DNA from: a virus
Taxonomy: Duplodnaviria; Caudoviricetes
Length of the DNA stretch: 45,525 nt
Direction: 5' to 3' (one strand)
IMG/VR virus record: IMGVR_UViG_3300017700_000628
Location: 1 to 45,525 of that record
Shown here: piece by piece, positions 22,957-40,371 of the stretch
How positions within the stretch are numbered: the first letter of the stretch is position 1
How the letters are laid out: every line of letters starts with the position of its first letter
Translations under genes and position numbers: made by a program
The notes under the pieces: generated by a model
Told to the model about the DNA's origin: nothing
What the model saw: the letters and a program-made list of their open reading frames with translations, nothing else
The model's database searches: none

Positions 22957-22995
22957 GGTCACGGCGCGATTGTGCGGCGGATGATGGAGTCTAAA

Positions 22996-23223: not shown

Positions 23224-23293
23224 TAATGGTTGTTTGCACCGTACGCGGTGCATTCATCCGCGATCATGCGGAATTTTGAAGATGGAGTCTATC

Positions 23294-23794
23294 ATGTCTG
23301 TTACCCTTCCCACGGCTCTCGAAATTGGCAACGCGATCTTGGCCGCGCAGTTCAGCACGACGATTGCCAAGACTGAAACCCTTCCGATTAACATGAACGA
23401 GTTTCCGCTTGTGGCCATTATGTCCATGCTGTCGCATGGGGCGCAGCGCAAGTTTAACGACGCGACAGGCGGCGCTGACAAGTCGGCGGCGGAAAAGGTC
23501 AGCATTGCCAAGGCCATGATTGCCGACTTCAAAAATGGTGTCGTGGCCAAGCGCGGCGAAGGCGCGACGACGGATCAGCTGGATGCGCGCAAGGCGATGC
23601 GTTCGCTGATGTCGCGGGCAGATGTGAAGACGTTGAACGAGATGGAGCCCGTAGCGCAAATCAAGAAGCTTGACGAATTGATCGCGGCCAATGCCGATAT
23701 CGTGGCTGGCGTCGTGGCTGACAATCGTGCCGAAGCTGCCCGCGTTGCGGCGCGGAATGCCGGACTGGTTGGCAAGGTTAAGATCAGTCTTTAA
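23294..23794 (+). CDS. Early helical hypothetical protein, 166 aa
   Basis: ATG follows the GAAGATGGAGTCTA leader, and a terminator follows the gene. Ends VKISL. Confidence 0.8.
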   Translation: MSVTLPTALEIGNAILAAQFSTTIAKTETLPINMNEFPLVAIMSMLSHGAQRKFNDATGGADKSAAEKVSIAKAMIADFKNGVVAKRGEGATTDQLDARKAMRSLMSRADVKTLNEMEPVAQIKKLDELIAANADIVAGVVADNRAEAARVAARNAGLVGKVKISL

Positions 23795-23800: not shown

Positions 23801-23829
23801 GGGGCGGCGCGAGTCGCCCCTTTCTTTCT
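23801..23829 (+). terminator. Rho-independent terminator
   Basis: GGGGCGGC-GCGA-GTCGCCCC stem-loop followed by TTTCTTTCT. Confidence 0.75.
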
Positions 23830-23847
23830 CAAAAAATGGAGTGTGTC

Positions 23848-24665: not shown

Positions 24666-24697
24666 TTCCACCGCGCCGTGTCATCTACATATGGCTG

Positions 24698-24726: not shown

Positions 24727-24800
24727 CCATTTGGGCCGAATTGCGCCCGGACTTTTCCCGTCAACTGGTGGCGCGGAAACCTGAAGATGGAGTCTTCAAA

Positions 24801-25192: not shown

Positions 25193-25389
25193 GAGCGTTC
25201 CCAACCTACTTGACCTTTGCAGCGATCATCACAACGATCGCGGCCCTGGCCCTGACCTTCATCGACACCTCGCGGTGGGCGGAAGGAAGCAGGGTTCTTT
25301 TCGTCTACGGCACGACCGTAGTGGGGATTTTTGGCCTGCTTTGCTTTTGGCTGGCCCAACTTTTGAAGGACAACGCAGATGAAGGCTAA
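25189..25389 (+). CDS. Small membrane protein (2 TM)
   Basis: Two hydrophobic segments, coupled to neighbours. Confidence 0.6.
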   Translation: MRAFPTYLTFAAIITTIAALALTFIDTSRWAEGSRVLFVYGTTVVGIFGLLCFWLAQLLKDNADEG

Positions 25390-25702: not shown

Positions 25703-26057
25703 AGACGTACTGCTAAAGGCCAAAAGCCTGATCGCCGACCCCGCGCATTGGACGCAGGGCGTTTATGCGAGAGATGCTGAAGGGTTTGACGTCGGCCCAA
25801 ACAGCCCCACGGCCGTATGCTGGTGCAGCTACGGCGCGATCGACGCGACTGCCCCGGACTTCACAGCCGAAAACACAGCGGCGGGGACTTTCCTGAAAGA
25901 CGCAGCCTTGGCGCTGTTCCCCACGTCCGTTCCTTGGCGGGCAGACGCGCCATTCAACGTCTACGGCCCAGTCGACGTGAATGACAAGATGACTCACGCT
26001 GATGTCATGCGTATGTTTGACAAGGCAGCGGAACTGGCAGGAGAAGACAATGCATAA
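25692..26057 (+). CDS. Paralogue 2 of the DUF6197-like family
   Basis: LIADPAHWTQGVYARDA...AVCWCSYGA...VND..THADVM.MF. Confidence 0.75.
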   Translation: MKVKDVLLKAKSLIADPAHWTQGVYARDAEGFDVGPNSPTAVCWCSYGAIDATAPDFTAENTAAGTFLKDAALALFPTSVPWRADAPFNVYGPVDVNDKMTHADVMRMFDKAAELAGEDNA

Positions 26058-26451
26058 CGAACAACTCACCGAGGCCCTTCGGCGGCTGCTTTCTGCGGTC
26101 GAAGGGCTGCAGTATGCCGGGGCGCGGATAGAGCAAGCGGTGATAAACGCCAAAGCAGCCCTCGTGGCGGCAGACGCCGATCGTACCCGCTACCTCGACC
26201 TCACCCCGCTCGCCCAGCCGCCGGTCCCCACGTACAGCGTGGCTGAGCCGGTTGACTTCCCCTTGGGCTGGACCCCTGACAGTCCCCGTTACCTCGCGGC
26301 GGTCGTCCACAACGGCGAGGTCTACGTCTTGCCGAACATCTACCATCTCAGCCGCGCCACGGCCACGTACACTGCGGAAGAAGCCCTCCGCACGGCCAAG
26401 GCATTCGCAGGTTTTCCTCTTTCCAATTGGGTGCGCCGTGTTTCGCTGTGA
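26050..26451 (+). CDS. Hypothetical protein with DFPxGWTP motif
   Basis: ATG at 26050 after GGAG. DFPLGWTPDSPRY resembles 27301-27546. Ends RRVSL. Confidence 0.65.
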   Translation: MHNEQLTEALRRLLSAVEGLQYAGARIEQAVINAKAALVAADADRTRYLDLTPLAQPPVPTYSVAEPVDFPLGWTPDSPRYLAAVVHNGEVYVLPNIYHLSRATATYTAEEALRTAKAFAGFPLSNWVRRVSL

Positions 26452-26674
26452 AACTGTTGAAGATAAGCAGCGAAATTTCGACATCGCTGACATCATGCTG
26501 AACACTGTGCTTGCGGGGGCGGCGCAGGATTGCTGTTGCCTGCCGCATTACTACATGAGCGTCACGCTGCAGGCCGAGAGCATCAAGCGGCTGATGCCGG
26601 AAGACGAACTCCTTCGGGTGGATGCGGAAATCATCCGCCTGCTCTCCAAGGTCAAGGTGGTGGTGGCGAGATGA
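26438..26674 (+). CDS. Hypothetical protein
   Basis: GTG start overlapping the previous gene fills the gap in the operon. The start is uncertain. Confidence 0.5.
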   Translation: MFRCETVEDKQRNFDIADIMLNTVLAGAAQDCCCLPHYYMSVTLQAESIKRLMPEDELLRVDAEIIRLLSKVKVVVAR

Positions 26675-26832
26675 GTGAAAAACCAACGACGACAGCGGTT
26701 AAGGTCGAAGAACTCCTTCGATTGCTGAAGATCGAAGAGGCGGCGAAGAAGTTCCTCGCCCGCTACGAAGTCGATGACACAGCCGGAATACGGCTGGCGT
26801 ATCGGCAGCTGCATTCGGCGTTAAACGAATGA
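26671..26832 (+). CDS. Hypothetical protein, 53 aa
   Basis: ATGA overlaps on both sides. Confidence 0.55.
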   Translation: MSEKPTTTAVKVEELLRLLKIEEAAKKFLARYEVDDTAGIRLAYRQLHSALNE

Positions 26833-26993
26833 CCCAGGCCGAACTTGTTCTCATCTGGTTCGCCGCGTCCCACGCGTTCAGCCATGCCCGGCAACAGCCC
26901 GGCGTGACCTCGTTCAACTTTGTCGTCTTCATCATCCTGCAGTGCATCTGCATCTACATGAGTATCAAAACCCTGATTGGAGCATGGTCATGA
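26829..26993 (+). CDS. Small hydrophobic protein, 54 aa (not in ORF track)
   Basis: Translated by hand: MTQAELVLIWF...FVVFIILQCICIYMSIKTLIGAWS. ATGA overlaps on both sides. Confidence 0.5.
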   Translation: MTQAELVLIWFAASHAFSHARQQPGVTSFNFVVFIILQCICIYMSIKTLIGAWS

Positions 26994-27304
26994 AACCCAG
27001 TGAAAAAATCGAAGCGATTAAATCGCTCATCTCAGACCCGGCAAGGTGGACTCAGCATGTAGCTGCACGAGACGCTCAAGGTCTTGAGACCCATGCAACG
27101 GACGAAAATGCTGTGTGCTGGTGCGTTTACGGCGCGGGAGCAAAGCTTCGTTTCCCGGTGCTGTCGTTTTACACCTACATCGAAGAGGCGGCGAGGGATA
27201 TGGTCGGGATTGGAGGAGTTAGCATGAACGACTCCTTACCGCATGACAAGGTTATGAGCGTTCTCGACCACGCAATCAAACTAGCAAAAGGAAAAGGCGC
27301 ATGA
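26990..27304 (+). CDS. Paralogue 3 of the DUF6197-like family
   Basis: LISDPARWTQHVAARDA...AVCWCVYGA, with GGAG 7 nt upstream of ATG 26990. Confidence 0.75.
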   Translation: MKPSEKIEAIKSLISDPARWTQHVAARDAQGLETHATDENAVCWCVYGAGAKLRFPVLSFYTYIEEAARDMVGIGGVSMNDSLPHDKVMSVLDHAIKLAKGKGA

Positions 27305-27546
27305 AACCTACCTATGTCCGCGCAAGCGACTTCGACTTCCCTACCGGCTGGACCCCGGCTTCCGCTCGTTTTTGCCCGGCGATCGAGGCGAACGGCATCA
27401 CCCTGTACCACAGCAAGATATGGTGCCCGACGCAGCAGTCCGCCAAGCAAATGGCAGCTGACTTCGTTGACCAAGCTGCGACCCTCGGCGTCGGCCTCCG
27501 CATAGCCTTCGCCCTCAACCCCGACTGGAAGCGCTTCACCGAATAA
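27301..27546 (+). CDS. Hypothetical protein with DFPxGWTP motif
   Basis: DFPTGWTPASARF, with an ATGA overlap. Confidence 0.65.
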   Translation: MKPTYVRASDFDFPTGWTPASARFCPAIEANGITLYHSKIWCPTQQSAKQMAADFVDQAATLGVGLRIAFALNPDWKRFTE

Positions 27547-27552
27547 CGCTAC

Positions 27553-27594
27553 CTGCAGGGCTTCGGTCCTGCAGTGAGAGTCATTCGGGCTCAC
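27553..27594 (+). other. Intergenic tandem stem-loops
   Basis: CTGCAGGGC-TTCG-GTCCTGCAG followed by GTGAG...CTCAC just before an RBS. No U tract. Confidence 0.55.
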
Positions 27595-27601
27595 AAGGAA
27601 G

Positions 27602-27856
27602 ATGGAAATGGCGAACTCAAATTTTTACATGCACTGCCGTGGCGAAGACGGCAAGCAGTACATCGTAGGCGATGACTTCAAACTGCCCGTCAGCGTCAGT
27701 CACTCGACAACAATCAGTGACGGCAATATGGGCTCAACGACGCACCTTTTCTTCGACACCCTCGATGAAATGCGGGCATTCGTCGACGCAGCTAACACAG
27801 CCGTCGCCCGCGCCGAACAGCTTTCCGCGAAGGAGGCCGAAAATGCCCAAAACTAA
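27602..27856 (+). CDS. Hypothetical protein
   Basis: AAGGAAGATGGA leader, start at 27602 or 27608. Confidence 0.65.
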   Translation: MEMANSNFYMHCRGEDGKQYIVGDDFKLPVSVSHSTTISDGNMGSTTHLFFDTLDEMRAFVDAANTAVARAEQLSAKEAENAQN

Positions 27857-28058
27857 CGTCGAGTTCGTCACGGAACTCATGGAGTTCAGCAACTTCGGCG
27901 CCCTCGCCCAGCTTTTCGTCATCGACGCGCTCGACAAATGGTCCGCGCGGATAAAAGACGCTGACTTGTCCGACTGGGGCGACGACAGCTTCATCCACCC
28001 CGATGCCTGGAAAGGCGTCGCGGCTGAAATCAACCAAAAGCTCAAGGAGCGGAAATGA
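27843..28058 (+). CDS. Hypothetical protein (MPKTNVEFV...)
   Basis: AAGGAGG RBS and coupling. Confidence 0.65.
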   Translation: MPKTNVEFVTELMEFSNFGALAQLFVIDALDKWSARIKDADLSDWGDDSFIHPDAWKGVAAEINQKLKERK

Positions 28059-28339
28059 CCGTCATCCGCCCCGCTACCATTATTGGCGGGCTCCCGGTCA
28101 TCGTCGAGATAGCATTCGGCGTTGACGACTCGCCAGTGACTGGCCGGGAATATTGGTCAGAGGTCGAAGCCATCTTTTGGCGCAAGCGAGACGGGAGCAA
28201 GGGAAAGGAAATCCCTCAGCACGTTTGGGACAAAGCCGAAAAATACGACTCCGGCTTCTGCAATCTTATTGAGCAAGTCACAGAAGACCTTGCTCACGAA
28301 AACAACCAACCAACCGAGGAAATGGTGCAATTCACATGA
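28055..28339 (+). CDS. Hypothetical protein
   Basis: AAGGAG RBS and ATGA overlaps. Confidence 0.65.
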   Translation: MTVIRPATIIGGLPVIVEIAFGVDDSPVTGREYWSEVEAIFWRKRDGSKGKEIPQHVWDKAEKYDSGFCNLIEQVTEDLAHENNQPTEEMVQFT

Positions 28340-28782
28340 CCGACATCCTATTCGGCCTGCCAGTCGTCCACGTCGAGGAAGTTATCGACCTGCCCGACAA
28401 GATGTCCGACCTGCTTTCCCTCGCCCTCGATGCATTGGAAGCCTGCGAGGCGGACCCGAACTACTTCGTCTACATGGGGGAGTACCACAAGCCAGCCGAT
28501 GACGGCACATGCTCCGTATGCCTCGCCGGCAGCGCCATGGCGAAAGTTCTCGGGGCGGATAAAACTCGCTGGCTCTGGCCGGACAACTTCGACGACCGGC
28601 TGGAAAAGAAACTTCGTGCCATCGACCGGCTGCGCCAGGGTCGGGTGTACGAAGCAGCTAAAGAGCTTGGTATCGCCGCTCCCTTCGATTCCGTTGCTAT
28701 TCCTTATTACAGCGTTTCCCCCGAAGAATTCAAAGCCGTTCTGCGCGGTCTTGCGGCAAAGTTGAAGGAGCTTGGAGCATGA
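28336..28782 (+). CDS. Hypothetical protein with CxxCLAG motif
   Basis: YMGEYH...TCSVCLAG, coupled to neighbours. Confidence 0.65.
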   Translation: MTDILFGLPVVHVEEVIDLPDKMSDLLSLALDALEACEADPNYFVYMGEYHKPADDGTCSVCLAGSAMAKVLGADKTRWLWPDNFDDRLEKKLRAIDRLRQGRVYEAAKELGIAAPFDSVAIPYYSVSPEEFKAVLRGLAAKLKELGA

Positions 28783-29180
28783 GCGACCCCACCCCGGAAG
28801 CCGTCGCGGCGGCGAAGGCCAATGTTGATGCCTATCTGGCGATGATCAAGCCAGACGCCGCCCTCGTGTGGTGGATGAAAGATGCAGTGCCACTGCGAGC
28901 CGCCCTCACCGCGAGCGAGGCGCGGGAGGCTGCACAGGCCGAACGCATCGCCGCCCTGGAGGTCGAGGTGAAGGGGCTGCGGGAGGTGGACGAAGGGGTC
29001 TACGCGGAGGCTGTGGATCTCGCGGTGAAGGACTGTTTTCCGGTCATCGCGTTCATATCCCCCATCGCTTGTAACATGCTTGGCCGCAAGCTGGTCAGGC
29101 GCATCCCCGAAGTCGCCGCTGAATTTGCCGAGAGAGCCAAAGCCCGCGCGGCGCTCGACGGGAAGGCGGTGGGGGGATGA
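28779..29180 (+). CDS. Hypothetical protein (coiled coil)
   Basis: ATGA overlaps. Confidence 0.6.
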   Translation: MSDPTPEAVAAAKANVDAYLAMIKPDAALVWWMKDAVPLRAALTASEAREAAQAERIAALEVEVKGLREVDEGVYAEAVDLAVKDCFPVIAFISPIACNMLGRKLVRRIPEVAAEFAERAKARAALDGKAVGG

Positions 29181-29404
29181 GCGAGCCGTCATTCAAGCGG
29201 ACCCTAAACCAGCACGGCGTCAAGTCATCCTGCGACCAGTGGAGGACCGTCAACGGGCGGCATTTCTCTCACTGGACCTCTGACGGCGTAGAGGAAGCAG
29301 CGGTCGCGCTGAGAAAGGCCGGTGTTCGCTGTCGCAGATTCGGCGGCGAGCTTTACGTCGATCAAGATGACTTAGCCAAAGCAGCGAAAGGCCCCACCCC
29401 ATGA
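29177..29404 (+). CDS. Hypothetical protein
   Basis: ATGA overlaps. Confidence 0.6.
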   Translation: MSEPSFKRTLNQHGVKSSCDQWRTVNGRHFSHWTSDGVEEAAVALRKAGVRCRRFGGELYVDQDDLAKAAKGPTP

Positions 29405-29730
29405 CTGACCTGATCGCCCGGCTGCGGGAAAGTCTGGCTAATGCTGATGAGGCTGCGAAGTGGCCTCACCTGAATGACATGTGCCTTATCGAAAGAGACG
29501 ACTTGCGTGCTGCTCTCGAATTGCTCGACCCCGAGCCCTCCCGCATCCGGGCGGCGGTGGAGGGGGAGACTGAACGGTGCGCGGGGATCGTCAAATCCGT
29601 CGTGGACCACAACGCCCATATCCACACAGTCTATCGCAAGATCGAACTGCCAACAGAAGCCAAAATGGCAGATGGCGTTCGCAAAGTCTGTGAGCGCATT
29701 GAAGCCGCCATCCGAGCGAGGACGCCATGA
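29401..29730 (+). CDS. Hypothetical protein
   Basis: MTDLIARLR start and ERCAGI...IEAAIRAR, typical of phage accessory proteins. ATGA overlaps. Confidence 0.6.
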   Translation: MTDLIARLRESLANADEAAKWPHLNDMCLIERDDLRAALELLDPEPSRIRAAVEGETERCAGIVKSVVDHNAHIHTVYRKIELPTEAKMADGVRKVCERIEAAIRARTP

Positions 29731-29915
29731 GCCAACTGTATGCAGTCAAGCTTGCGAATGGGAATTGGTGGAGACCGCCGGCCGCTACAGTAATTATTTC
29801 CTCGAAAGAGGGATGCTACAGCGCGATTAATGAGTGGAAGTGCTATTTTCCTGAACTCCTTTTATCCGCAAAAGTCGTCCCCATCCGCCTAGAGGAGGCC
29901 CCCGATGCCCGGTGA
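29727..29915 (+). CDS. Hypothetical protein
   Basis: Coupled ORF. Confidence 0.5.
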   Translation: MSQLYAVKLANGNWWRPPAATVIISSKEGCYSAINEWKCYFPELLLSAKVVPIRLEEAPDAR

Positions 29916-30141
29916 CACCGATGACGATTTCTTCGGCCTTCCGTCTGTCGGCTCGCCTGAATGCAGAGCCGCCGTCGAAGCCCGTCACAAGGATTGGACG
30001 CCACGCGCCGGCACAGTCTCCAACCCGCTGCCAAGCCTCGAATGGCCGGGGGATGACAAGCCGTCAAGCTGGTACGGAATAAATCCAAAGGGCCAACTGA
30101 CTAAGGTCTACCGCTCATACGAGGACTATTGCGATGACTGA
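29905..30141 (+). CDS. Hypothetical protein (C-terminal VYRSYEDYCDD)
   Basis: GAGGAGG RBS. Confidence 0.6.
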   Translation: MPGDTDDDFFGLPSVGSPECRAAVEARHKDWTPRAGTVSNPLPSLEWPGDDKPSSWYGINPKGQLTKVYRSYEDYCDD

Positions 30142-30421
30142 CACCCCCGACCTCCGCGCCGCCATCGCCACCGTCAGGGCGGCGGGGTTCAGGGTCGCGC
30201 AATACGATGACGAGCATCTGGCAGCGCTCGGTGTCGAGTTATGGAATTCGCGAGACTACTGGGCGCGACTGAACGGCAACGGGCATATGTACACGGCCTC
30301 TGCCATTGAGCGCGCCAACCTTCGCGTAATCAAAGCGCGCGAATCCTTCAAATCCTATCTGGACGAAGGCGACCCGGAACTGACGCGAGCCGCCATGGTC
30401 GCGGCAGGAGAGGTGAAATGA
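30134..30421 (+). CDS. Hypothetical protein
   Basis: GAGG RBS and coupling. Confidence 0.6.
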   Translation: MTDTPDLRAAIATVRAAGFRVAQYDDEHLAALGVELWNSRDYWARLNGNGHMYTASAIERANLRVIKARESFKSYLDEGDPELTRAAMVAAGEVK

Positions 30422-30609
30422 GCGCCGAGGAAATCGCGATGAAGCTGTGGACGGAACTGCACCGCCAATACCACGATGGCAGCGGCATGACGGCTTATGT
30501 CGAGACATGGCACGACGAGGTCCGCGCCAACCCGCGCGACGTGTGTATCGACGGGCATCTGGACCTCGTCGCCATGGTGGAATTCGTGCTGAAGGAGGGC
30601 GGGAGGTGA
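30418..30609 (+). CDS. Hypothetical protein
   Basis: GGAGAGG RBS and ATGA overlap. Confidence 0.6.
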   Translation: MSAEEIAMKLWTELHRQYHDGSGMTAYVETWHDEVRANPRDVCIDGHLDLVAMVEFVLKEGGR

Positions 30610-30764
30610 TCTGCAAGCTATGCAAGGGTTCCGGCAATCTCGTCTGCAGCGACCACACCGGCCAGCTTCTTTGGTGGCCGTGCGTATCGTGCGGTGCGAC
30701 CGGCGTCACCATTCAACACGGCCCGGCATTGATCGGCCCCGGCACAAGAAAGCGCACCCCATGA
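30606..30764 (+). CDS. Small zinc-finger protein (DnaJ-type CxxCxGxG)
   Basis: CKLCKGSG...CVSCGATG, with a GTGA overlap. Confidence 0.55.
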   Translation: MICKLCKGSGNLVCSDHTGQLLWWPCVSCGATGVTIQHGPALIGPGTRKRTP

Positions 30765-31000
30765 CCGCCCCCGACCCCGCCGTCGAGGCGCTGGCGAATG
30801 TGCTGAAGCCCATAATGGGCAGCATGTTTTTCAAGCTACCGGACATCGACTTCGCAATCATTTCAGATGGCATCCTCGCCGCGATCCGAGCCGGGCAGGT
30901 GCCGGGGGTTGGTGTAGAGTCGCCGACGTTCATTGGCGCAACAATCGGCCCCTCAGATCAGCGGGTTCACTACATACCCGCGCCACCGGAGGCAGAATGA
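30761..31000 (+). CDS. Hypothetical protein
   Basis: ATGA overlaps. Confidence 0.55.
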   Translation: MTAPDPAVEALANVLKPIMGSMFFKLPDIDFAIISDGILAAIRAGQVPGVGVESPTFIGATIGPSDQRVHYIPAPPEAE

Positions 31001-31254
31001 CCTACTTTCGTTCAAAAAAACTCACCAAACAGCAAGTCCAAGAAATCTTCCTCTCAACGGACAAGCTTATCGTCATCGCTAAACAATACAAAATCAGCGA
31101 AGCGACTGTAAGTCTAATCCGCAACAGCAAACGCCACGAGCCTTTCACAAGGAACCTCCCATGTCCAGCTACGACCCCGATCGATCCCGGTTCAACTACA
31201 TCGCCAACCCCGAGCGACTCTTGCTCCACTCCATCACCCCGGCCACCCCGGTGA
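30997..31254 (+). CDS. Small helix-turn-helix DNA-binding protein
   Basis: KLTKQQVQEI...IAKQYKISEATVSLIR, with a GGAGG RBS. Confidence 0.65.
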   Translation: MTYFRSKKLTKQQVQEIFLSTDKLIVIAKQYKISEATVSLIRNSKRHEPFTRNLPCPATTPIDPGSTTSPTPSDSCSTPSPRPPR

Positions 31255-31373
31255 GCGGCCCGCACGAGTTCACCCCCTGGACCTTACGTCCTTCCGTCTG
31301 CAAGCTGTGCCTCCGGCCCAAACACAAATGCACTGCACTCTCCCCTTCCAATCCCGCCGAGGCTGTGGTATAA
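31161..31373 (+). CDS. Hypothetical protein with CxxC..H motif
   Basis: AAGGA RBS. Overlaps the low-complexity tail of the HTH ORF. Confidence 0.4.
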   Translation: MSSYDPDRSRFNYIANPERLLLHSITPATPVSGPHEFTPWTLRPSVCKLCLRPKHKCTALSPSNPAEAVV

Positions 31374-31374
31374 T
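31346..31374 (+). promoter_or_regulatory. Putative sigma70 promoter with extended -10
   Basis: TTCCAA-N17-TATAAT with TG at 31366-31367, and an AAGGAG RBS downstream. Confidence 0.7.
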
Positions 31375-31398
31375 GGCCCCGGCAGCAAGGAGTCCCCA

Positions 31399-31677
31399 AT
31401 GCGTTTAAGCCTCGGCCCGAACGGAGATATGCAGGCGCATATCAAATCCGCCGACTCCGATACGGAGCACGCAGTCCGTGTGCCGCTGACCGAGAACGGC
31501 GTCCGCTTTCTCCATCACCTGCTGGTCCAGCAGACGAAAGCCCCGCAGGCCAAGATCGGCACCCTCGCCTCCCCAACGCAGCAGGACGCCGATCTTTGGC
31601 TCCGTCGCGACGCCGCGAAGAAAGCTGACGCCGCCTATCCCGACATCGATCGCTCAAAGCTGAAAGTATCCCTATGA
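31399..31677 (+). CDS. Hypothetical protein ending LKVSL
   Basis: Promoter and RBS upstream, ATGA coupling downstream. Confidence 0.7.
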   Translation: MRLSLGPNGDMQAHIKSADSDTEHAVRVPLTENGVRFLHHLLVQQTKAPQAKIGTLASPTQQDADLWLRRDAAKKADAAYPDIDRSKLKVSL

Positions 31678-32066
31678 CCTCCCTCGCCATGTTTGAAGAC
31701 GTGAAGGAAATTCTCGACCAGGCGCTTGCCTCGGGCGGCGGCGAAGTCACTCTCGCATCCCCCGGCCAGGCAGTCCGTTGGAGGCAGCGGGCCTACCAGT
31801 TCCGCAAGCTCATGCGGGGCAAGGTGGACTACTCGATCTACGATCGGCTTACGCTGAACAAGCTCGAAGACGGCTCCGCAGTCGTGACGATCAAGGTCAT
31901 TCAGCAGGCAGCCGTCTTTGCACCGGCCGCTGACGGCATCCCGGTGAAACTTCCGGAGCCGACGCTGAAAAAGCCCTCCGCCCGGCTCCGCAAAGTCGCA
32001 ACGACCGACGACCTGCAGGAAGCAGCCGACGCCATCGCGGAGAAGCTGAAGGGGGACATCTTTTGA
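31674..32066 (+). CDS. Hypothetical protein
   Basis: Coupled ORF with phage-like codon usage. Confidence 0.7.
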   Translation: MTSLAMFEDVKEILDQALASGGGEVTLASPGQAVRWRQRAYQFRKLMRGKVDYSIYDRLTLNKLEDGSAVVTIKVIQQAAVFAPAADGIPVKLPEPTLKKPSARLRKVATTDDLQEAADAIAEKLKGDIF

Positions 32067-32335
32067 TTCTTATCTACGACCTTCCTCCCGGCGTCCGCTT
32101 TTATTCCATCCAGCGCCACTACGCCGTCGGCCCCTACCGCGTGGGGCTGATGAAGGAGATCAAACTCCCCAACGGCAAGCTGGGGGAAATCTACGGTCAG
32201 GGGTTTTCAAAAGACCTCACCGAAGCAGCGGCCCTTGCCTTAGCAGACATCGACTTAAGCCTCAGACGGCGGGCATTCATCGAGCGCGGAGAGGCCATCG
32301 ACCCATCGCTTTCCGCAGTTAAAATATCTTTGTGA
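32063..32335 (+). CDS. Hypothetical protein ending VKISL
   Basis: TTGA overlap and G-rich RBS. Confidence 0.6.
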   Translation: MILIYDLPPGVRFYSIQRHYAVGPYRVGLMKEIKLPNGKLGEIYGQGFSKDLTEAAALALADIDLSLRRRAFIERGEAIDPSLSAVKISL

Positions 32336-32341
32336 GGACAT

Positions 32342-32506
32342 ATGGCAGAACCATTGTACTTCAAAGACGGCCTAATCCCCGCTGACCGGGCTTGGGCAAT
32401 ATACGACGGGAAAACTATCCGGGTTTACCTGAAAGGTGAATTGATAGCTGACCTGCCGTTTGAGACTTTCGCCGCACTTCAAAACGCACTGGAGGCAGTA
32501 GAATGA
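32342..32506 (+). CDS. Hypothetical protein, 54 aa (not in ORF track)
   Basis: GAGGA RBS. Translated by hand as MAEPLYFKDG...NALEAVE, with an ATGA overlap to the next gene. Confidence 0.55.
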   Translation: MAEPLYFKDGLIPADRAWAIYDGKTIRVYLKGELIADLPFETFAALQNALEAVE

Positions 32507-32727
32507 CTGGAAGTTCCCGCTACGAAAAACGCTACCTCGGCGACGGCCTGTACGCCGACTACGACGGATACCAAATTCGTCTCTACACTATGGAAGGCGC
32601 CGAGGTCTTTCTCGAACCCTCCACTTACGAAGCGCTGATCCAGTACCAGCGCGGACTGGCCGACCCTATCCACGACGACGCAAACATTATGCTGAGGAGC
32701 ACTTCCGATGAAATCTCGAATAGTTAA
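32503..32727 (+). CDS. Hypothetical protein (YLGDGLYADYDGYQI motif)
   Basis: GGAGG RBS. The motif recurs in small phage proteins. Confidence 0.65.
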   Translation: MTGSSRYEKRYLGDGLYADYDGYQIRLYTMEGAEVFLEPSTYEALIQYQRGLADPIHDDANIMLRSTSDEISNS

Positions 32728-33022
32728 AATAAGAGTTCCGCCCGACCTTGCGGCTGAACTTGATCTAATCCTCAACGAGCGAAAACTTTCCATTGAAGAT
32801 GCAGCTTTGCTGTATCTCCGGTCTATGGTGGCAAACGCCACTCGGGACCGCTGTCTTTTTCTTTCCGACAAAATGCAGTTCGGAAAATTCAAAGGCTCCA
32901 CTCTTGAGACCGTGATAAAAGCACAGCCAGATTACGTGGTCTGGCTTCTGACTAATTCCAAATCCTTCTCAATCGAGATTGAGGCAATGGAATTACTCAA
33001 CGACATTATGTCAGGAGATTAA
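32708..33022 (+). CDS. Ribbon-helix-helix-like domain fused to an FGK.KG...PDY..WL (DUF3820 / ExoX C-terminal-like) domain
   Basis: N-terminal IVKIRVPPDLAAEL and C-terminal MQFGKFKG...QPDYVVWL. Confidence 0.6.
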   Translation: MKSRIVKIRVPPDLAAELDLILNERKLSIEDAALLYLRSMVANATRDRCLFLSDKMQFGKFKGSTLETVIKAQPDYVVWLLTNSKSFSIEIEAMELLNDIMSGD

Positions 33023-33024
33023 AC

Positions 33025-34452
33025 TTGTCCTTCACCCCCACCCTCGAACAGCTTGCCATCGTCGAAGCAGCTGTCTCGTCTTCGGACAACCTCCTCATCG
33101 AGGCCCTCGCAGGCGCGGCCAAGACTTCTACCCTGGTCCTCATCGCGGAAGCCCTGCCCGGCGAGCGCATCCTTTCCCTCGCCTTCAACAAGCGCATCGC
33201 GACGGAAATGACCGCCCGCCTGCCGTCGAACTGCGAGGCCAAAACCCTCAACGGTCTCGGCCACGGCGTTTGGGCTGACGCTATCGGTCGGCGCCTGACC
33301 ATTGACACAGGCAAGGTGTACAAAATACTGTCCACCCTCATCGCCAAGCTGCCGAAAGACCTGCAGTCCGCTGCCTACGCCGCTCTCGCCGAGCTTATCC
33401 AAGCCGTCAGCTTTGGCAAAGCCTGCGGGTACGTCCCTGCCGGCGTCGACAAGATGAAACGCCTCATGGACGATGGCGAGTTCTTCTCCCACCTCGAGGA
33501 AGAACTCGAGCCTTGGAAGCAGGAGCTTATCGCCGAAGCTTCCGCCATCTCCATCAAGCAGGCGTGGCAGGGCCTGTGCGACTTCGACGATCAAATCCTC
33601 ATGCCGACGCTCGCTACCGGCGTCTTTCCCCGATACCCGCTCGTCTTGATCGACGAGGCCCAGGACCTATCCGCCCTCAACCACGCCATGCTGCAGAAGC
33701 TGGTGAAAAAGCGGATCATTGCAGTCGGCGACTCGGCCCAGGCCATCTACGGTTTCCGAGGGGCGCATCAGGACAGTATGTCCTTGCTCGCCCAGCAGTT
33801 CACCATGAAGCGGTTGTCGCTGACAATCTCCTTCCGCTGCCCTCGCGCCGTTGTCGAGGCCGCTCGTTTCCGCGCCCCGATGATGCGCTATCCTGAGTGG
33901 GCGATCGAGGGGGAGGTCGCGCACCTCGGCGAGTGGACGCCCGCTACCATCCCCGACTACGCCTCCGTTCTGTGCCGCAACAACTCCCCGCTCTTCTCCG
34001 TCGCCATCAAGCTGTTGAAGGCCGGCCGCTACCCCGAGCTTATCGGCAACGACATCGGCAAGGGGCTGCTGAAGATCATGTCGAAGTTCGGTCCTCCGAA
34101 AATGCCCAAGGCCGACGTGCTCTCCGCGATCGAAACGTGGCGGTCAGAGAAACTGGAAAAGTCCCGCGCCATCGCCTCCGTCAACGACAAGGCCGACTGC
34201 CTCATCATCTTCGCCTCGATGGGCGACAACCTGGGCGAGGCAATTGCCTACGCCGAGCACATCTTCGCCTCGTCCGGCCCCATCAAACTCATGACTGTCC
34301 ACAAAGCCAAGGGCCTTGAGTTCGATGATGTCTTTTTCCTCGACCACCAACTGATCGGCAAGGAGAAGCAGGAGCCGAACCTGCGTTACGTCGCCATCAC
34401 CCGAGCCAAGAAGCGGCTCACCTACATACGCTCGGACGACTTCAGAGCGTGA
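33025..34452 (+). CDS. Superfamily 1 (UvrD/Rep-like) helicase, 475 aa
   Basis: EALAGAAKT, LAFNK, LIDEAQD, VGDSAQAIYGFRGA, SFRCP, TVHKAKGLEFD and YVAITRAK motifs. Confidence 0.92.
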   Translation: MSFTPTLEQLAIVEAAVSSSDNLLIEALAGAAKTSTLVLIAEALPGERILSLAFNKRIATEMTARLPSNCEAKTLNGLGHGVWADAIGRRLTIDTGKVYKILSTLIAKLPKDLQSAAYAALAELIQAVSFGKACGYVPAGVDKMKRLMDDGEFFSHLEEELEPWKQELIAEASAISIKQAWQGLCDFDDQILMPTLATGVFPRYPLVLIDEAQDLSALNHAMLQKLVKKRIIAVGDSAQAIYGFRGAHQDSMSLLAQQFTMKRLSLTISFRCPRAVVEAARFRAPMMRYPEWAIEGEVAHLGEWTPATIPDYASVLCRNNSPLFSVAIKLLKAGRYPELIGNDIGKGLLKIMSKFGPPKMPKADVLSAIETWRSEKLEKSRAIASVNDKADCLIIFASMGDNLGEAIAYAEHIFASSGPIKLMTVHKAKGLEFDDVFFLDHQLIGKEKQEPNLRYVAITRAKKRLTYIRSDDFRA

Positions 34453-34454
34453 TA

Positions 34455-34484
34455 CATACCCTTACACCCTGTAATCATACATAC
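34455..34484. promoter_or_regulatory. Quasi-palindromic phage site, copy D (CATACCCTTAC-ACCCT-GTAATCATACATAC)
   Basis: 26/30 identical to 22673-22702, and 17 bp upstream of a TTGACA -35 box. Confidence 0.7.
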
Positions 34485-34501
34485 GGGGCTGCAATTACCC
34501 G

Positions 34502-34529
34502 TTGACATTTGGCCACAAAGCCGTAAGAT
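34502..34529 (+). promoter_or_regulatory. Putative sigma70 promoter
   Basis: TTGACA-N16-TAAGAT in an intergenic gap. Confidence 0.7.
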
Positions 34530-34579
34530 CGTCAACGGTTCACCGGGGCATTCCGCCCATCAAGCCAAGGAAACAGACA

Positions 34580-35083
34580 ATGACCACCAAGACCAAGCTG
34601 ATTGCAGGTATCGCCTTCGTCCTTTCGCAGCCATACGCCGCTGGTCACATCGTGACCGACGCCGAAGCCAAGGCGCTCAATCAGGTCCGCTCCGAGAACA
34701 TCGGAAACAACGTGCGCGAAAAGGTGAAGGAGCTGGCCGCTGCCGGCGACGAAGCCGCCGCTCACGCCCTCGTCGCCGAGAAGGACGCCGAGTATGTCTT
34801 CAACTTCTCGGCCGTCAGCGCCGCTCGCAAGCTGGACCCCGAAGAGGCCGAGGCCCGCAAGATCGCCAAGGACCTCATCAAGGCCCACCTGGCCGAGAAC
34901 GGCCGCAAGCTCACCGTCGCCCCCGAGGGCACCACGAAGGAAGAGTGGGAGGAGAAGATCGACGCCGAGATCGATCGCATCGCCGCGACCCCCGAGGTGC
35001 TCAAGGTCGCGAAGAAGAACGTCGCCGACAAGAAGAAGCGTTCGGAGCAGCTGCTCGGCGCCGTCGGCGGAGTTTCCGTCTAA
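34580..35083 (+). CDS. Charged helical protein of unknown function, probably highly expressed, 167 aa
   Basis: Has its own promoter and an AAGGA RBS, with strongly biased codons (GCC, AAG, GAG). Confidence 0.8.
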   Translation: MTTKTKLIAGIAFVLSQPYAAGHIVTDAEAKALNQVRSENIGNNVREKVKELAAAGDEAAAHALVAEKDAEYVFNFSAVSAARKLDPEEAEARKIAKDLIKAHLAENGRKLTVAPEGTTKEEWEEKIDAEIDRIAATPEVLKVAKKNVADKKKRSEQLLGAVGGVSV

Positions 35084-35260
35084 GGTTCTAGACTCCATCT
35101 TCCCTTAGACGGACGGCCCCTGCGTGACCCACCCCCCTCGGCACGCAGGGGCTACCCCCCTCTAAAATGGTTAGAACGGGTGGATTACCCCCAGCAGTGC
35201 CGGGCTAATTAAACGACGACGACTGAAAAAATCGCGTCCATCCGTTCTATCCTTTTCAGA
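35075..35260 (+). ncRNA. Candidate structured RNA of three hairpins; loop 1 is antisense to early-gene RBS leaders
   Basis: Stem 35075-35085/35103-35113 (11 bp perfect), stem 35116-35126/35142-35152 (11 bp perfect) and stem 35161-35184/35237-35260 (24 bp imperfect). Expression has not been shown. Confidence 0.6.
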
Positions 35261-35282
35261 GTGTACCACGAAAGGAAAGAGT

Positions 35283-35567
35283 ATGATCGAGTCAGTTCTA
35301 AACGGCGCAAACTTCCGGCCCGAGTCGGCGCGGAACCTCGTCAAGAAGCTGCAGATCGGCGAGATGCTTGAGCTGAAGCACGAGCCCTTCAACGCCTACG
35401 ACCCCAGCGCCGTTCAGGCCCTGTACGAGGGCATTCACATCGGCTACGTCGCGAAGGCAGACAACGCCGGCATCGCTGCCCACATGGAAGACGGCGGCGA
35501 GGTGACCTGCGAAGTCACCGGCTTCTTCTCCACCCTCAAGCCCACCCTGCGTATCGAGCTTCTCTAA
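35283..35567 (+). CDS. HIRAN domain protein
   Basis: GANFR...LELKHEPFNAYDPSAV...HIGYV signature. Confidence 0.85.
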   Translation: MIESVLNGANFRPESARNLVKKLQIGEMLELKHEPFNAYDPSAVQALYEGIHIGYVAKADNAGIAAHMEDGGEVTCEVTGFFSTLKPTLRIELL

Positions 35568-35755
35568 TGCTGGAGCTTCTCTACGAAGCGTACCACTCCG
35601 AGTACGGTATCGTCGTGGAAACCGATGACGTAGAGAAGCTCCGCCAGAAGCTGTACCAGCTGCGCAAACCGCACAAGGAGCTTGCATGTCTTTCATTCGC
35701 TACTTCCCCGATGCTGCCCAAAACCAACCTCTGGATCGTCCGTCGTCCAGACTAA
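35567..35755 (+). CDS. Hypothetical protein
   Basis: TAATG coupling. Confidence 0.65.
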   Translation: MLELLYEAYHSEYGIVVETDDVEKLRQKLYQLRKPHKELACLSFATSPMLPKTNLWIVRRPD

Positions 35756-35767
35756 CCGGAGCGTTTC

Positions 35768-35959
35768 ATGGCCAAAGCTGAAACCACCCTCGTCAAGCAC
35801 ACGCTGAACCTCCACAAGGGGGATTACCGGCGTGTGCAGGAGCTTTACCCTGACGTAGGCGCCGGTGCCGTCATCCGCCGCCTGCTCCGCAACTTCCTCG
35901 AGCGTGTCGACGCCGCAGGCGGAACGACTGACGAGCTTTCCGAGGAGGTCAAACTTTGA
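35768..35959 (+). CDS. Small protein, possible ribbon-helix-helix DNA binder
   Basis: A strand (KHTLNL) followed by two helices (VIRRLLRNFL), with a GGAG RBS. Confidence 0.55.
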   Translation: MAKAETTLVKHTLNLHKGDYRRVQELYPDVGAGAVIRRLLRNFLERVDAAGGTTDELSEEVKL

Positions 35960-36396
35960 CCGACATTTCCGAACTTGTAAATTTACGTGTAAAATACGAT
36001 CCCATTACAGGTATTTTTACATGGAAAAACTATGGGGCTAAAACCGGAAGAATTGCCGGAACAAGGACTGGTTTAGGCTATATCCGTATAGGCATAGCCG
36101 GTAAAGATTATATGGCGCATCGGCTTGCGTGGCTTATTGTGCATGGAACTTGGCCTAGCAATGTTATTGATCACATTAATGGAGTTGGCACTGATAATCG
36201 CATAGCTAATTTAAGAGATGTGTCTATCAGCGATAACGCAAAAAATCGTCGTGGCGCTAATACAAACAGCAAGACAGGATTAAGGGGCATTACACAGCAT
36301 CAAAACGGTTATATAATTAGAAAAAACGCTAAATATGTAGGAACCTGTACCAGCTTAACCGGCGCAAAAATCATGTGGGAGAACGCAAATGTCTGA
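35956..36396 (+). CDS. HNH homing endonuclease (HNH_3 type)
   Basis: YDPITGIFTW, HRLAW, IDHING..TDNRIANLR, N..SKTG. Visibly AT-rich DNA. Confidence 0.9.
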   Translation: MTDISELVNLRVKYDPITGIFTWKNYGAKTGRIAGTRTGLGYIRIGIAGKDYMAHRLAWLIVHGTWPSNVIDHINGVGTDNRIANLRDVSISDNAKNRRGANTNSKTGLRGITQHQNGYIIRKNAKYVGTCTSLTGAKIMWENANV

Positions 36397-36592
36397 CGTC
36401 CATGAGCTTATGCGGCGTGACCCGCTGAAGCTCACCAAGGCTGACGTTTCGCAGATCGTTCAGGTCATGCGGGAAAACCGGGGCCGCTTCACTGCCGGCA
36501 ATGCCAAGGCCGGGAGCACAAAGCCGCTGACCGAAAAGCAGAAGCAGCTTGGCGGCCTCGCCGAAACCCTCGGGCTGAAGATTTCCCTTTAA
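36389..36592 (+). CDS. Hypothetical protein ending LKISL
   Basis: GGAG RBS lies within the end of the HNH gene. Confidence 0.7.
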   Translation: MSDVHELMRRDPLKLTKADVSQIVQVMRENRGRFTAGNAKAGSTKPLTEKQKQLGGLAETLGLKISL

Positions 36593-36601
36593 GGAGGCCC
36601 A

Positions 36602-37537
36602 ATGGCCGACTCGCCTTACGACGCCCTAGGCCGTCAGTACGCCTGGGACAGCACCTCCATCAAATACGCCGAGGAATGTCTGTACAAGTACAAGCTGGCG
36701 ATGCTTGAAGGATGGCAGCCGGAGTCCAAGTCCGTCCATCTACTTTTTGGCGGCTGGTACGCAACGGCGCTGGAGCATTTCCACAAGCACCGCGCTGCAG
36801 GTATGGAGTGGGTCGACGCGGTTGAGACCGTCGTGCTTGAAGCCCTCGTCAACACATGGGAACATGAGCGGGATGAAGCTGGCGAGCGCCTCCCCGATAC
36901 CGGCTCCGCTTGGGAGTCCGACCACAACACCAAGACTCGCGAGAACCTGATCCGCACGATCATCTGGTACTTGGACCAGTTCGAGGACGACGCTGCGAAG
37001 ACAGTCATCTTGTCGAACGGACAAGCCGCAGTCGAATACTCCTTCACGATCAACGTAGACAACGGCATCACTTTTTCGGGCCACCTCGATCGTCTCGTTG
37101 AGTACGCCGGGCACATCTACGTGCAGGACCAGAAGACAACCGGCAACACGATCACGCAGAAGTTCTTCGAGGGCTTCTCCCCCGACACGCAGATGTCGAT
37201 GTACACTTTCGCCGGAAAGATGCTGTACAACATCCCCGTCCACGGAGTCATCATCGACGGCGCGCAGATCGCTGTAGGCTTCAGCCGTTTCGAGCGCGGC
37301 TTTGCGTGGCGTACGGCGGACCAGCTCGACGAGTGGTACACTGACACCATGTACCACATCGAGGCTGCGCGCAAGGCCGTGGAGGAAAATTACTTCCCCA
37401 TGAACCGCAGCTCATGCGGGAACTACGGCGGGTGCGAGTTTCGTAGCATTTGCTCCAAGTCGCCCGTCGTGCGCCAGCAGTACCTCAAGGGTACGTACGT
37501 TCAGCGCACCCCCTGGAACCCGTTGGAGAAAAGATAA
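36602..37537 (+). CDS. PD-(D/E)XK exonuclease, Cas4/AddB-like with Fe-S cysteines
   Basis: N-terminal Cys (CLYKY), GHLDRLV...VQDQKTT, QMSMY, and C-terminal CGNYGGCEFRSIC. Confidence 0.85.
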   Translation: MADSPYDALGRQYAWDSTSIKYAEECLYKYKLAMLEGWQPESKSVHLLFGGWYATALEHFHKHRAAGMEWVDAVETVVLEALVNTWEHERDEAGERLPDTGSAWESDHNTKTRENLIRTIIWYLDQFEDDAAKTVILSNGQAAVEYSFTINVDNGITFSGHLDRLVEYAGHIYVQDQKTTGNTITQKFFEGFSPDTQMSMYTFAGKMLYNIPVHGVIIDGAQIAVGFSRFERGFAWRTADQLDEWYTDTMYHIEAARKAVEENYFPMNRSSCGNYGGCEFRSICSKSPVVRQQYLKGTYVQRTPWNPLEKR

Positions 37538-38304
37538 TGGCCAGCCTTTCCGACCACGCATCTTCCCGCTTCGCTAAACTTCTCTACATCGGCGACAGCG
37601 GTTCTGGCAAGACCGGCTCTCTTGAGCCATTGCTCCGCGACGGCTATCACATGCGGATCATCGACATGGACAATGGGCTTGACTCCCTCGTCCAGTTCGC
37701 CAAGAAGAACTGCCCGGCCGCCCTTGGCAACGTCGAGTACGAGACCCTGCGCGACGCATACACCTCCACTCGCAGCGGCCCGATCGTCAAGTCAGCGAAA
37801 GCCTTCGTCGCCGCGCTGGAGAAGATGACGGAATGGGCCAAGATCGAGGACGATAACACAATCTTCGTCCTCGACTCCTTGTCCGCTTTCGGCAAGGCAG
37901 CTTTCGAGTGGGCCAAGGGGCTCAACCCTACGGCCAAAGACCCGCGCCAGTGGTACTTCGCCGCACAGCAGGCAGTCGAAAACACACTCGCCTTGCTTAC
38001 CTCCGAAGACTTCAAGATGAACGTGATCGTCATTTCCCACGTCAACTACAAGGAAGTCACCGAGGGAGTCCACAAGGGGTACGCCAACGCTATCGGCGCT
38101 GCCCTCGGCCCCATCATCCCGCGCTACTTCAACACCATGCTTCTCGCCGAGTCGCAGGGCTCCGGCACGAACACGAAGCGCAAGATCAAAACCATGCCCA
38201 CAGGCATCATCGACGTGAAGAACCCTGCGCCGAGCTTGCCTGCGGTACTCGATTTGGAGACGGGTTTGTCCGCCGTCTTCAAAGCCCTGAAGGGGCAAAA
38301 CTAG
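37537..38304 (+). CDS. P-loop ATPase (AAA_24 / Sak4-like recombinase)
   Basis: GDSGSGKT, IIDMDNG, FVLDSLS, VIVISH. Sits between the exonuclease and the SSB-like gene. Confidence 0.8.
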   Translation: MASLSDHASSRFAKLLYIGDSGSGKTGSLEPLLRDGYHMRIIDMDNGLDSLVQFAKKNCPAALGNVEYETLRDAYTSTRSGPIVKSAKAFVAALEKMTEWAKIEDDNTIFVLDSLSAFGKAAFEWAKGLNPTAKDPRQWYFAAQQAVENTLALLTSEDFKMNVIVISHVNYKEVTEGVHKGYANAIGAALGPIIPRYFNTMLLAESQGSGTNTKRKIKTMPTGIIDVKNPAPSLPAVLDLETGLSAVFKALKGQN

Positions 38305-38333
38305 GACTACCAACCTCAACAAGGAACTACAGC

Positions 38334-38792
38334 ATGTCTCTCAATTTCGCCGACCTCGCCAACAAGAAGATGTCCGACATCGAGGCAGTGCCCCTGCCGC
38401 CCGTCGGTCATTACCGCTGGAAGATCACCAAGCTGCCCGAGATCACCACCACTGCCGATGGCAAGTGGGACATCCTCAACATCCCCGTTCGTGCCGTCGA
38501 GGCTGTCGACGTCGAGGACATCGCGGAGTTCAAGGGCAAGCTGACTGACATCATGCAGTCGGTCCGCTTCATGTTCGACAAGAACGACGAGGTCGCCTTC
38601 CTGAAGTCGCTCAACCAGGTGAAGAAGTTCTTCTCCAAGCACGTCCGCTGCTGCGAGGAGGACGACGAAATCAAGATCGCCCTGAACAATTCCGTCGGTC
38701 AGGAGTTCATGGGCCAGATCGCCTGGAAGGCCGACAAGAATGACCCCGAGGTTTTCTTCGCCAACATCAGCAAGACCGGCCCGCTGGATTAA
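38334..38792 (+). CDS. Probable ssDNA-binding protein (DUF669-like)
   Basis: PLPPVGHY..KI motif and a beta-rich sequence. Follows the Sak4-like gene, with an AAGGA RBS and a terminator downstream. Confidence 0.6.
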   Translation: MSLNFADLANKKMSDIEAVPLPPVGHYRWKITKLPEITTTADGKWDILNIPVRAVEAVDVEDIAEFKGKLTDIMQSVRFMFDKNDEVAFLKSLNQVKKFFSKHVRCCEEDDEIKIALNNSVGQEFMGQIAWKADKNDPEVFFANISKTGPLD

Positions 38793-38799
38793 CTGAAGG

Positions 38800-38826
38800 A
38801 GGGGGGCGAAAGCTCCCCTTTTCTTT
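38800..38826 (+). terminator. Rho-independent terminator
   Basis: AGGGGGGC-GAAA-GCTCCCCT followed by TTTCTTT. Confidence 0.8.
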
Positions 38827-38848
38827 CCTCTTTTTCAGGACAGCCGCG

Positions 38849-39052
38849 ATGACCCCGATCTACTTTCTCTACTCCGCCCGTTCTTCCGGCTGGATGACAA
38901 CCTCCGGGATTTACAGCTCCGAAATCAAAGACGCCAAAGAGTTCTCGCAGGCGGAAGCTCTCAAACTCTGCAAGCTCCATTACAAAAATGGAATGTCGGA
39001 GTTCGGGCTTATCCCAGTTTCTTTTTCTGACATCAAGGCAATCCAGTCGTGA
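38849..39052 (+). CDS. Hypothetical protein
   Basis: AGGA RBS, and GTGA overlap with the next gene. Confidence 0.6.
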   Translation: MTPIYFLYSARSSGWMTTSGIYSSEIKDAKEFSQAEALKLCKLHYKNGMSEFGLIPVSFSDIKAIQS

Positions 39053-40371
39053 ATTTCAAAACAGTCCCCATCGACTCCATCACCGTCGATCGCGCGATCC
39101 GGCAGCGGCGCGAGCTGAACAACATCGAAGAACTCGCAGAGTCAATCCGGCGCGTTGGCGACGAGACAGGTGAGTGCGGGCTTATCAACCCCATCACTGT
39201 CAACAAGGACATGGTTCTGATCGCCGGCGAGCGCAGGCTTACCGCGTGCAAGATGCTTGGTTGGACCTCCATTCCCGTCCGCTTTTTTGAGAACCTTCCT
39301 GAACGCGAACAGCGTCTTGTCGAGCTGGAAGAAAACGTCCGGCGCCTCGGTCTTACGTGGCAGGAGGAAGTCAAGGCCGTGCAGGACTACCACAACCTGC
39401 GCAAGTCTTCCGAGCCCGACTGGTCGCAGGAAAAAACCGCCGAGGCCCTCGGCTTCACCGGCGCAACTGCCAACCGTTACCTTGTCGTCGCCTCGAAGAT
39501 GGATGACCCGCAGGTAGCGAAGGCGGACAAGTTTTCCACCGCCTTGGGCCTCGTCACCCGCGCGAGAGAACGTCAGGCTGCAAGCGTGCTCGAGTCCCTT
39601 GACGAGCCCGAAGTCGAAGAACAGGTTGACGGCGAACCTGCGCCCGCAGCGCCTGTCAAGGTCGTCGCAAAAATCCCCCTCATCAATGCAGATTTCATCG
39701 AGTGGTCCGCTGCGTACACCGGCCCGAAGTTCAACTTCCTGCATTGCGACTTTCCCTACGGCGTGAACATGCACGACAGCGGGCAGGGCGCCGGCCAGGG
39801 GTTCGGGACGTATCAGGATAGCCCTGATGTTTACTGGAAATTGCTTGACCATCTCAGCGCCGTCATGGACAAGCTCGTCGCCGACAGCGCTCATATGATC
39901 TTTTGGTTCTCGATGGACTTTTACAGCGACACATTAGTCCGGCTTAAGCTCATGGACTGGAACGTCTCCCCCTTTCCCCTCATCTGGCACAAGTCCGACA
40001 ATACAGGCATCCTACCAGACAGCAAGCGCCAGCCCCGCCGGGTGTACGAAACCGCATTCTTCTGCACTCGCGGCGATCGCTTCCTCGCCACTGGCCCGCA
40101 CGGCCAAGGCCCAGTTGCCAATTCCTTCGCCGCCCCAGGTCGCGACAAGTCGATCCACATGAACGAGAAGCCGGTAGAAATGCTCCGTCACTTCATGCGG
40201 TTGTGCGTTGACGAGTACTCCGTTATGCTTGACCCAACGTGCGGCAGCGGCAACGCGGTGAAAGCTGCAGAACTTCTCGGCGCCCACAGCGTCCTCGGCA
40301 TCGAGCGTGATCCGGAGTTCTACGCCCGCGCTGTTCAAGCCTACCCTGCGACAGGCCCGGTCACGCTCTAA
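39049..40371 (+). CDS. ParB-like N-terminal domain fused to an N6A/N4C DNA methyltransferase
   Basis: GLINPITV...LIAGERRL and ELEEN..R (ParB). Motif IV CDFPYG precedes H.NEKP and motif I LDPTCGSG (beta order). Confidence 0.85.
   Translation: MNFKTVPIDSITVDRAIRQRRELNNIEELAESIRRVGDETGECGLINPITVNKDMVLIAGERRLTACKMLGWTSIPVRFFENLPEREQRLVELEENVRRLGLTWQEEVKAVQDYHNLRKSSEPDWSQEKTAEALGFTGATANRYLVVASKMDDPQVAKADKFSTALGLVTRARERQAASVLESLDEPEVEEQVDGEPAPAAPVKVVAKIPLINADFIEWSAAYTGPKFNFLHCDFPYGVNMHDSGQGAGQGFGTYQDSPDVYWKLLDHLSAVMDKLVADSAHMIFWFSMDFYSDTLVRLKLMDWNVSPFPLIWHKSDNTGILPDSKRQPRRVYETAFFCTRGDRFLATGPHGQGPVANSFAAPGRDKSIHMNEKPVEMLRHFMRLCVDEYSVMLDPTCGSGNAVKAAELLGAHSVLGIERDPEFYARAVQAYPATGPVTL

Follow-up and report, generated by a model that had tools for sequence, protein, structure and literature searches.

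The window analysed, i.e., the whole stretch of 45,525 nucleotides, represents an entire virus record (45.5 kb) with direct terminal repeats. Structural genes of the podophage type are located on its - strand, and the + strand contains small unknown genes, followed by genes of a helicase, an exonuclease, Sak4, a polymerase and a primase. The capsid protein is nearest to those of Burkholderia and Bordetella podophages, and the polymerase to that of Caulobacter phage Kuura (38.7%). No close copy was found in any cultured phage by megablast of positions 22000-40000 or by tblastn of g167, two relatives and gene 23294. The organism labels of four GTDB matches were mutually inconsistent, and accordingly no host was assigned. 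Several other features were annotated in the window: an early family (phrog_762) represented by three paralogs at 25379-27304, the first of which also matches DUF6197; a non-coding region between early units that contains long runs of T and of A (24440-24620), possibly an origin or a regulatory site; a fusion of a ParB-like domain with a region resembling DNA methyltransferases (39049-40371); and a conserved 63-aa gene at 35768-35959, the family of which is present in at least 15 genomes and has no Pfam match. We take the product of the latter gene to resemble a ribbon-helix-helix DNA-binding protein, judging by the pattern of its sequence.

The conserved gene g167 is followed by a tail of predicted RNA hairpins (Table 1). 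The 5' arm of hairpin 1 overlaps the stop codon of the reading frame, and we infer that the tail is transcribed as the 3' UTR of the g167 mRNA, directly at the stop codon. Inside the loop of hairpin 1 an inner 3-bp stem is predicted, which leaves the pentaloop CUCCA exposed at 35093-35097. For the region 35075-35261 three domains were predicted, with a folding energy of -82.1 kcal/mol (z -7.33; 0 of 200 shuffles as low). The loop of hairpin 2 has no RBS target of at least 9 bases within the window, and the U run closing the third domain was not called as a terminator by terminator prediction. A hairpin with the same loop core, carried on other stem arms, occupies the same position in the relative L082.

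Table 1. Coordinates of the g167 locus, its tail and the early leaders matched by the loop of hairpin 1
Feature	Positions	Strand	Remarks
RBS target of the first early gene (22996-23223)	22983..22993	+	11-nt antisense match
RBS target of gene 23294	23278..23291	+	14-nt antisense match; conserved target across the family
Gene 23294 (fam15)	23294..23794	+	conserved 166-aa early gene, function unassigned; in 29/38 genomes, one weakly
Terminator-like hairpin 3' of gene 23294	23801..23820	+	terminator prediction
Weak candidate target, gene 23848-24093	23836..23842	+	7-nt match, -11.3
RBS target of gene 24801-24962	24783..24795	+	13-nt match
Candidate target, gene 27608-27856	27597..27606	+	10-nt match
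Sigma70-like promoter of the 167-aa gene	34502..34529	+	TTGACA-16-TAAGAT
g167	34580..35083	+	conserved 167-aa gene, function unassigned; 3' UTR holds the putative RNA; 176 homologs
Hairpin 1	35075..35113	+	perfect 11-bp stem (35075-35085/35103-35113); 17-nt loop 35086-35102 carrying the seed
Hairpin 2	35115..35153	+	C-rich loop
Predicted third RNA domain	35160..35261	+	branched long stem, short U run at the end

The sequence-only reading had described the stem and loop of hairpin 1 and five antisense matches of 14, 13, 11, 10 and 7 nt to leaders of early genes; all these coordinates were reproduced. A single contig was compared with the window and no differences were found, although this contig may itself represent the origin of the sequence. 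All five matches are on the + strand, immediately 5' of start codons. Six matches to the 13-mer motif are present in the window at up to two mismatches, against 0.92 expected, and this number was reached in none of 100 shuffles. A tag copy with two mismatches is also located inside gene 22996 (23145-23157), with no in-frame start codon noted. Among 69 hand-listed start regions of the window, the three best duplexes with the loop are those of genes 22996 (-24.0), 23294 (-23.8) and 24801 (-22.2 kcal/mol), the median being -8.9. Of the five matches, that of 7 nt is weak. For the leader of a late tail gene (16049, - strand), pairing with the loop scores -16.4. The leader at 24783..24795 is predicted to form a small hairpin of its own around the Shine-Dalgarno (SD) sequence. 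Given the terminator-like hairpin at 23801, the main target would probably be on a separate transcript; such a hairpin is present 3' of the gene 23294 ortholog in 11 of 28 genomes, and an early promoter consensus 5' of the fam15 gene in only 5 of 28.

Tails were analysed for 80 of 124 viral and 80 of 85 metagenome g167 loci; 145 of the tails were at least 150 nt long, and dereplication reduced them to 112. At least one strong hairpin was found in 103 of the 112 related tails and at least two strict hairpins in 41, and the fold z was below -3 (base shuffles) in 43 of the first 60. Stem sequences are not common across the tails. The loops contain TCC/CTC in 100 cases of 155, versus GGA/GAG in 20. 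Single stem mismatches are represented by 50 G-U and 11 A-C pairs (P 4.6e-7), an excess that favours an RNA of the + strand and, at the level of sequence, agrees with the earlier assumption that this strand is transcribed. Accessible UCC was found in 93 of the 112 tails on the + strand versus 30 on the - strand; folding energy did not separate the strands (+ lower in 48/112, P 0.10). The G-U bias also speaks against a CsrA-type sponge encoded on the - strand, an alternative that was therefore rejected. A U run after the stem is present in just 31 of the 112 tails, which gives no support for a defined 3' end. A sigma70-like site upstream of g167 was found in 72 of 105 related loci, the numbers in the two control sets being 7 and 2. 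In the cultured Caulobacter phage Kuura, a distant relative, gene 050 (L266:38290-39282) is a distant homolog of g167 (HMM E 3.3e-8). A promoter-like site is present, and the gene is followed by a structured tail of 230 nt, in which no clear seed matching loop to leader was found.

Covariation of tails with leaders was analysed in relatives of the virus, 37 of 45 being taken in, one only partly, with eight records of 19-26 kb left out. The matrix of all leaders included 35 genomes, the window among them, after removal of the near-duplicates G013, G028 and G036. Leaders adjoining the tail were kept out of it, as their inclusion gave a false opposite-strand signal. The leader filter missed the 23294 and 24801 leaders of the window in the matrix, in the loop-exposed counts and in the gene-family counts, which makes these counts conservative. 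Tails matched leaders of the + arm of their own genome 115 times at 8 nt, against 52.9 expected from cross-genome pairs, and 53 times against 15.3 at 9 nt (P 5e-5, the permutation floor). For opposite-strand leaders the excess was marginal at 8 nt (62 versus 49.4, P 0.049), and at 9 nt 18 matches were found versus 14.4 (P 0.2). Sense and unreversed controls were null at 9 nt in the 35-genome matrix, and random windows of the own genome gave 10.4 +/- 3.2 matches at this length. Among the matches listed, examples are G004 with five matched leaders, G034 with six and G015 with several, each of these genomes having a tag of its own. Among candidate leaders, a loop-exposed match was found for 58 of 629 upstream and 32 of 469 downstream ones, for 6 of 250 others on the same strand and for 43 of 1209 on the opposite strand. 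The sequence-only reading had limited the regulon to the earliest genes; early-gene leaders are indeed matched, but across the family so are leaders of the replication region, above background (32/469 vs 43/1209, P 0.005).

A further test was made with the orthologs of a single gene, fam15, in 28 genomes, the weak match in G035 being dropped from the 29 genomes of 38. The match between tail and leader of the same genome averaged 7.8 nt, versus 5.4 nt between genomes (P 2e-5), and the accessibility-corrected energy -11.4 versus -7.7 (P 2e-5). Own matches of at least 8 nt were found in 15 of the 28 genomes and in 5.2% of cross pairs; with the window removed, 14 of 27 remained (P 2e-5). The 15 matching genomes contain 12 different tags, and in 14 of them the matched segment is mostly unpaired. 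In comparison with the nearest relative on a six-marker tree, the own match is longer than that with the relative's leader (7.8 vs 5.9, P 7e-4) or tail (5.8, P 0.0012), and on the same tree the cross-genome match length does not follow distance. Of 25 conserved gene families, fam15 is the only one with a distinct signal (P 1e-4, in the 22 genomes that passed the filter); three other families were marginal before correction, and the leaders of capsid, tail and g167 genes were null. The leader of g167 itself has a match of at least 8 bases in 0 of 25 genomes (P 0.32), and some leaders downstream of g167 are marginal (P 0.012 and 0.031 before correction). Loops and leaders had been expected to covary in relatives, and this was found both with all leaders and with fam15, but the correspondence is incomplete: a specific match of at least 8 bases is absent from 13 of the 28 genomes, including the whole clade of G003, G005, G006 and G008. 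In the genomes G001, G016, G024 and G031, fam15 is located on the strand opposite to g167 owing to a rearrangement of the early region, and in two of these four the loop is still antisense to the fam15 mRNA.

The proteins encoded by g167 and fam15 are likely distant paralogs, as indicated by comparison of their profiles (probability 84%, E 7e-6, 51 columns). Among 26,737 reading frames, the ten best outside matches of the fam15 profile were all g167, and the six best of the g167 profile were all fam15. The predicted secondary structures follow the same order. The relationship was not detected by BLASTP or by a narrower alignment. Kuura contains one detectable copy of the g167/fam15 family. No convincing family or fold was found for either protein: Foldseek gave no match at E 0.001, the best VIA Z values were 5.4 and 5.8, the Atlas gave only hypothetical viral clusters, and PHROGs only weak unnamed or single-member matches. 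An HMG-box-like identity, appearing only in weak structure rows, was not trusted.

Taken together, the RNA element is real, conserved and covarying. Since loop and RBS change together across relatives, the RNA likely pairs with early messages and would switch early translation off. Judging from sequence, the tail is probably a trans-acting anti-Shine-Dalgarno RNA damping early translation (probability about 0.7). In the proposed mechanism, host polymerase would transcribe g167 together with the tail from the promoter at 34502, and the RNA would either be released or act as part of the g167 mRNA. Being stable, it would accumulate during infection; its exposed CUCCA loop would nucleate on the GGAG of an early leader, and the duplex would zip over the SD and the spacer, excluding the 30S subunit and repressing translation. 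The role of the element would be that of a delay or a dosage brake on early genes. As the main target is an apparent distant paralog of g167, the circuit would switch from an early copy of the protein family to a second one. The timing, which is the weakest step, could come from accumulation of the RNA and the copy number of the template, not from promoter class: the g167 promoter looks sigma70-type, and therefore neither a delay at the promoter level nor the original claim of a later-expressed RNA is supported.

The same pairing may serve another purpose, namely c4-like immunity or superinfection exclusion, by which early genes would be kept off in a carrier state or incoming phages with the same tag would be blocked, but we consider this unlikely. 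The difference of tags between lineages (12 in 15 genomes) resembles the target-specifying loops of c4 (PMC5320573), and the promoter needs only host polymerase. However, tyrosine integrase and serine recombinase domains were found in none of the 34 genomes searched and an HTH_3 domain in only three, which favours a lytic role over immunity; a plasmid-like state is compatible with these data. Rather improbable is the reverse or outward direction of the effect, in which early mRNAs would titrate the RNA and its main job would be blocking host RBSs or controlling the stability or read-through of the replication operon. Many loops are indeed generic C-rich anti-SD sequences, including that of hairpin 2 in the window and those of the clade without matches, and clear terminators are few, but the private extensions beyond the SD core change in step with one phage gene, and the predicted hairpins are mutually independent, with no evident alternative fold.

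Motifs repeated 5' of early genes may represent operators or protein-binding sites, and for the start-associated sequences (SAS) of mycobacteriophages the protein-site option was left open in the sections cited (PMC3203893), but it is very improbable that the tags are DNA or protein-binding sites and the inverted copy merely a further site with no RNA pairing: this copy is located in unpaired parts of stems with a G-U bias, the sense controls were null, and the motif varies freely by lineage yet stays complementary. It is least probable that the match arose by chance or as an inverted RBS copy that is neutral. The first match was noticed post hoc and C-rich loops match any SD by 5-6 bases (off-diagonal mean 5.4), but this reading is already disfavoured by the permutation, nearest-neighbour, strand and gene-family controls.

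A trans-acting anti-SD RNA of this kind has several known counterparts, repression of initiation by SD-covering sRNAs being established (PMC4615179). The c4 RNA of phages P1 and P7 is likewise a phage RNA, the loops of which occlude RBSs and contain variable specificity bases; it is processed from a longer transcript and serves lysogeny and immunity (PMC5320573). The loops here are likewise complementary to RBS regions and vary in the bases that would set specificity. However, c4 is described as a three-stem unit of about 77 nt with RNase P cleavage at stem P1, whereas the element of the window is predicted to consist of hairpins in series, about 190 nt long, in a 3' UTR; unlike c4, it has candidate targets 7-12 kb away in several early units, and no integrase was found. 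Rfam covariance models at E up to 1 gave only a weak unrelated match in the window (24067-24148) and none in 12 related loci.

In the cuckoo/RSs0680 (CcsR)/alpha-r14 sRNAs of Alphaproteobacteria, too, hairpins are located side by side, the stems vary and the loops are C-rich anti-SD sequences; these sRNAs are co-transcribed behind a small gene (PMC4615179, PMC8034643), and the tail here likewise follows a small gene. Two to four adjacent variable-stem hairpins are typical for that group, and three domains are predicted in the window. Their loop motif CCUCCUCCC was absent from the loops of the window and was found in 8 of the 112 tails; it is described as invariant, whereas here each lineage has private loops that follow the phage leaders. 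The CcsR type is described with an upstream DUF1127 gene, whereas no DUF1127 was detected in the 167-aa protein by a Pfam scan. Accordingly, the element works like the c4 and cuckoo RNAs, yet some defining features of each are absent from it.

The OppZ and CarZ RNAs also originate from mRNA 3' UTRs, are released by RNase E and inhibit translation by pairing (PMC7398697); they are described as repressing their own operon, whereas here the own leader is unmatched and pairing would be with a likely paralog at another locus. Most known cases of early-gene shut-off in lytic phages involve proteins, e.g., RegB of T4, an endoribonuclease inactivating early phage mRNAs at GGAG SD sites, for which context bases 3' of the motif matter as well (PMC3014915); in the family studied here, RNA pairing would do the job of RegB. 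The phage RNAs treated in the cited part of a 2025 review either target the host or overlapping genes or function in lysogeny (PMC12197685); sources cited for comparison with known systems also include PMC9959647 and bioRxiv 2022.04.08.487710. In agreement with the sequence-only reading, which knew of no such system, none was described in the literature searched, largely without subscription papers.

Cluster K mycobacteriophages likewise contain a private extended RBS motif at non-structural genes, the SAS, together with a single reversed copy (PMC3203893). A motif of one orientation at RBSs of non-structural genes was also found in the window, but those phages are unrelated and the consensus is different: the 13-bp SAS consensus has no matches at up to two mismatches on either strand of the window. 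In the sections of PMC3203893 cited here, the function of SAS is left open and no RNA is proposed for the reversed copy. A scan that covered the right half of each of four Cluster K genomes placed the reversed SAS in the apical loop of a long stem predicted on the + strand in two of the four, Anaya (L267:31871-31883) and Angelica (L268:30635-30647), the unpaired values of the site being 0.75 and 0.77. No such hairpin with a reversed SAS was found in the halves of TM4 and Pixie examined.

These data lead to a broader proposal, which is possible but to which we give less than even odds. In it, an integrase-less podophage family would time infection by RNA barcodes: the tail of one paralog would read the lineage-private RBS tag of the early paralog and of co-regulated genes, and the tags would diverge into mutually orthogonal codes. 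The same design would explain the SAS of Cluster K1, and would represent a general layer of temporal control in phages. If true, a dispersed early regulon would be silenced by a trans-acting RNA via a private RBS tag, unlike protein-based shut-off. The natural swaps in 15 lineages represent ready-made compensatory pairs for a reporter test, and the tails would constitute a natural set of orthogonal translational repressors. For the cultured mycobacteriophages Anaya and Angelica, the same arrangement may offer a possible answer to the question of SAS function.
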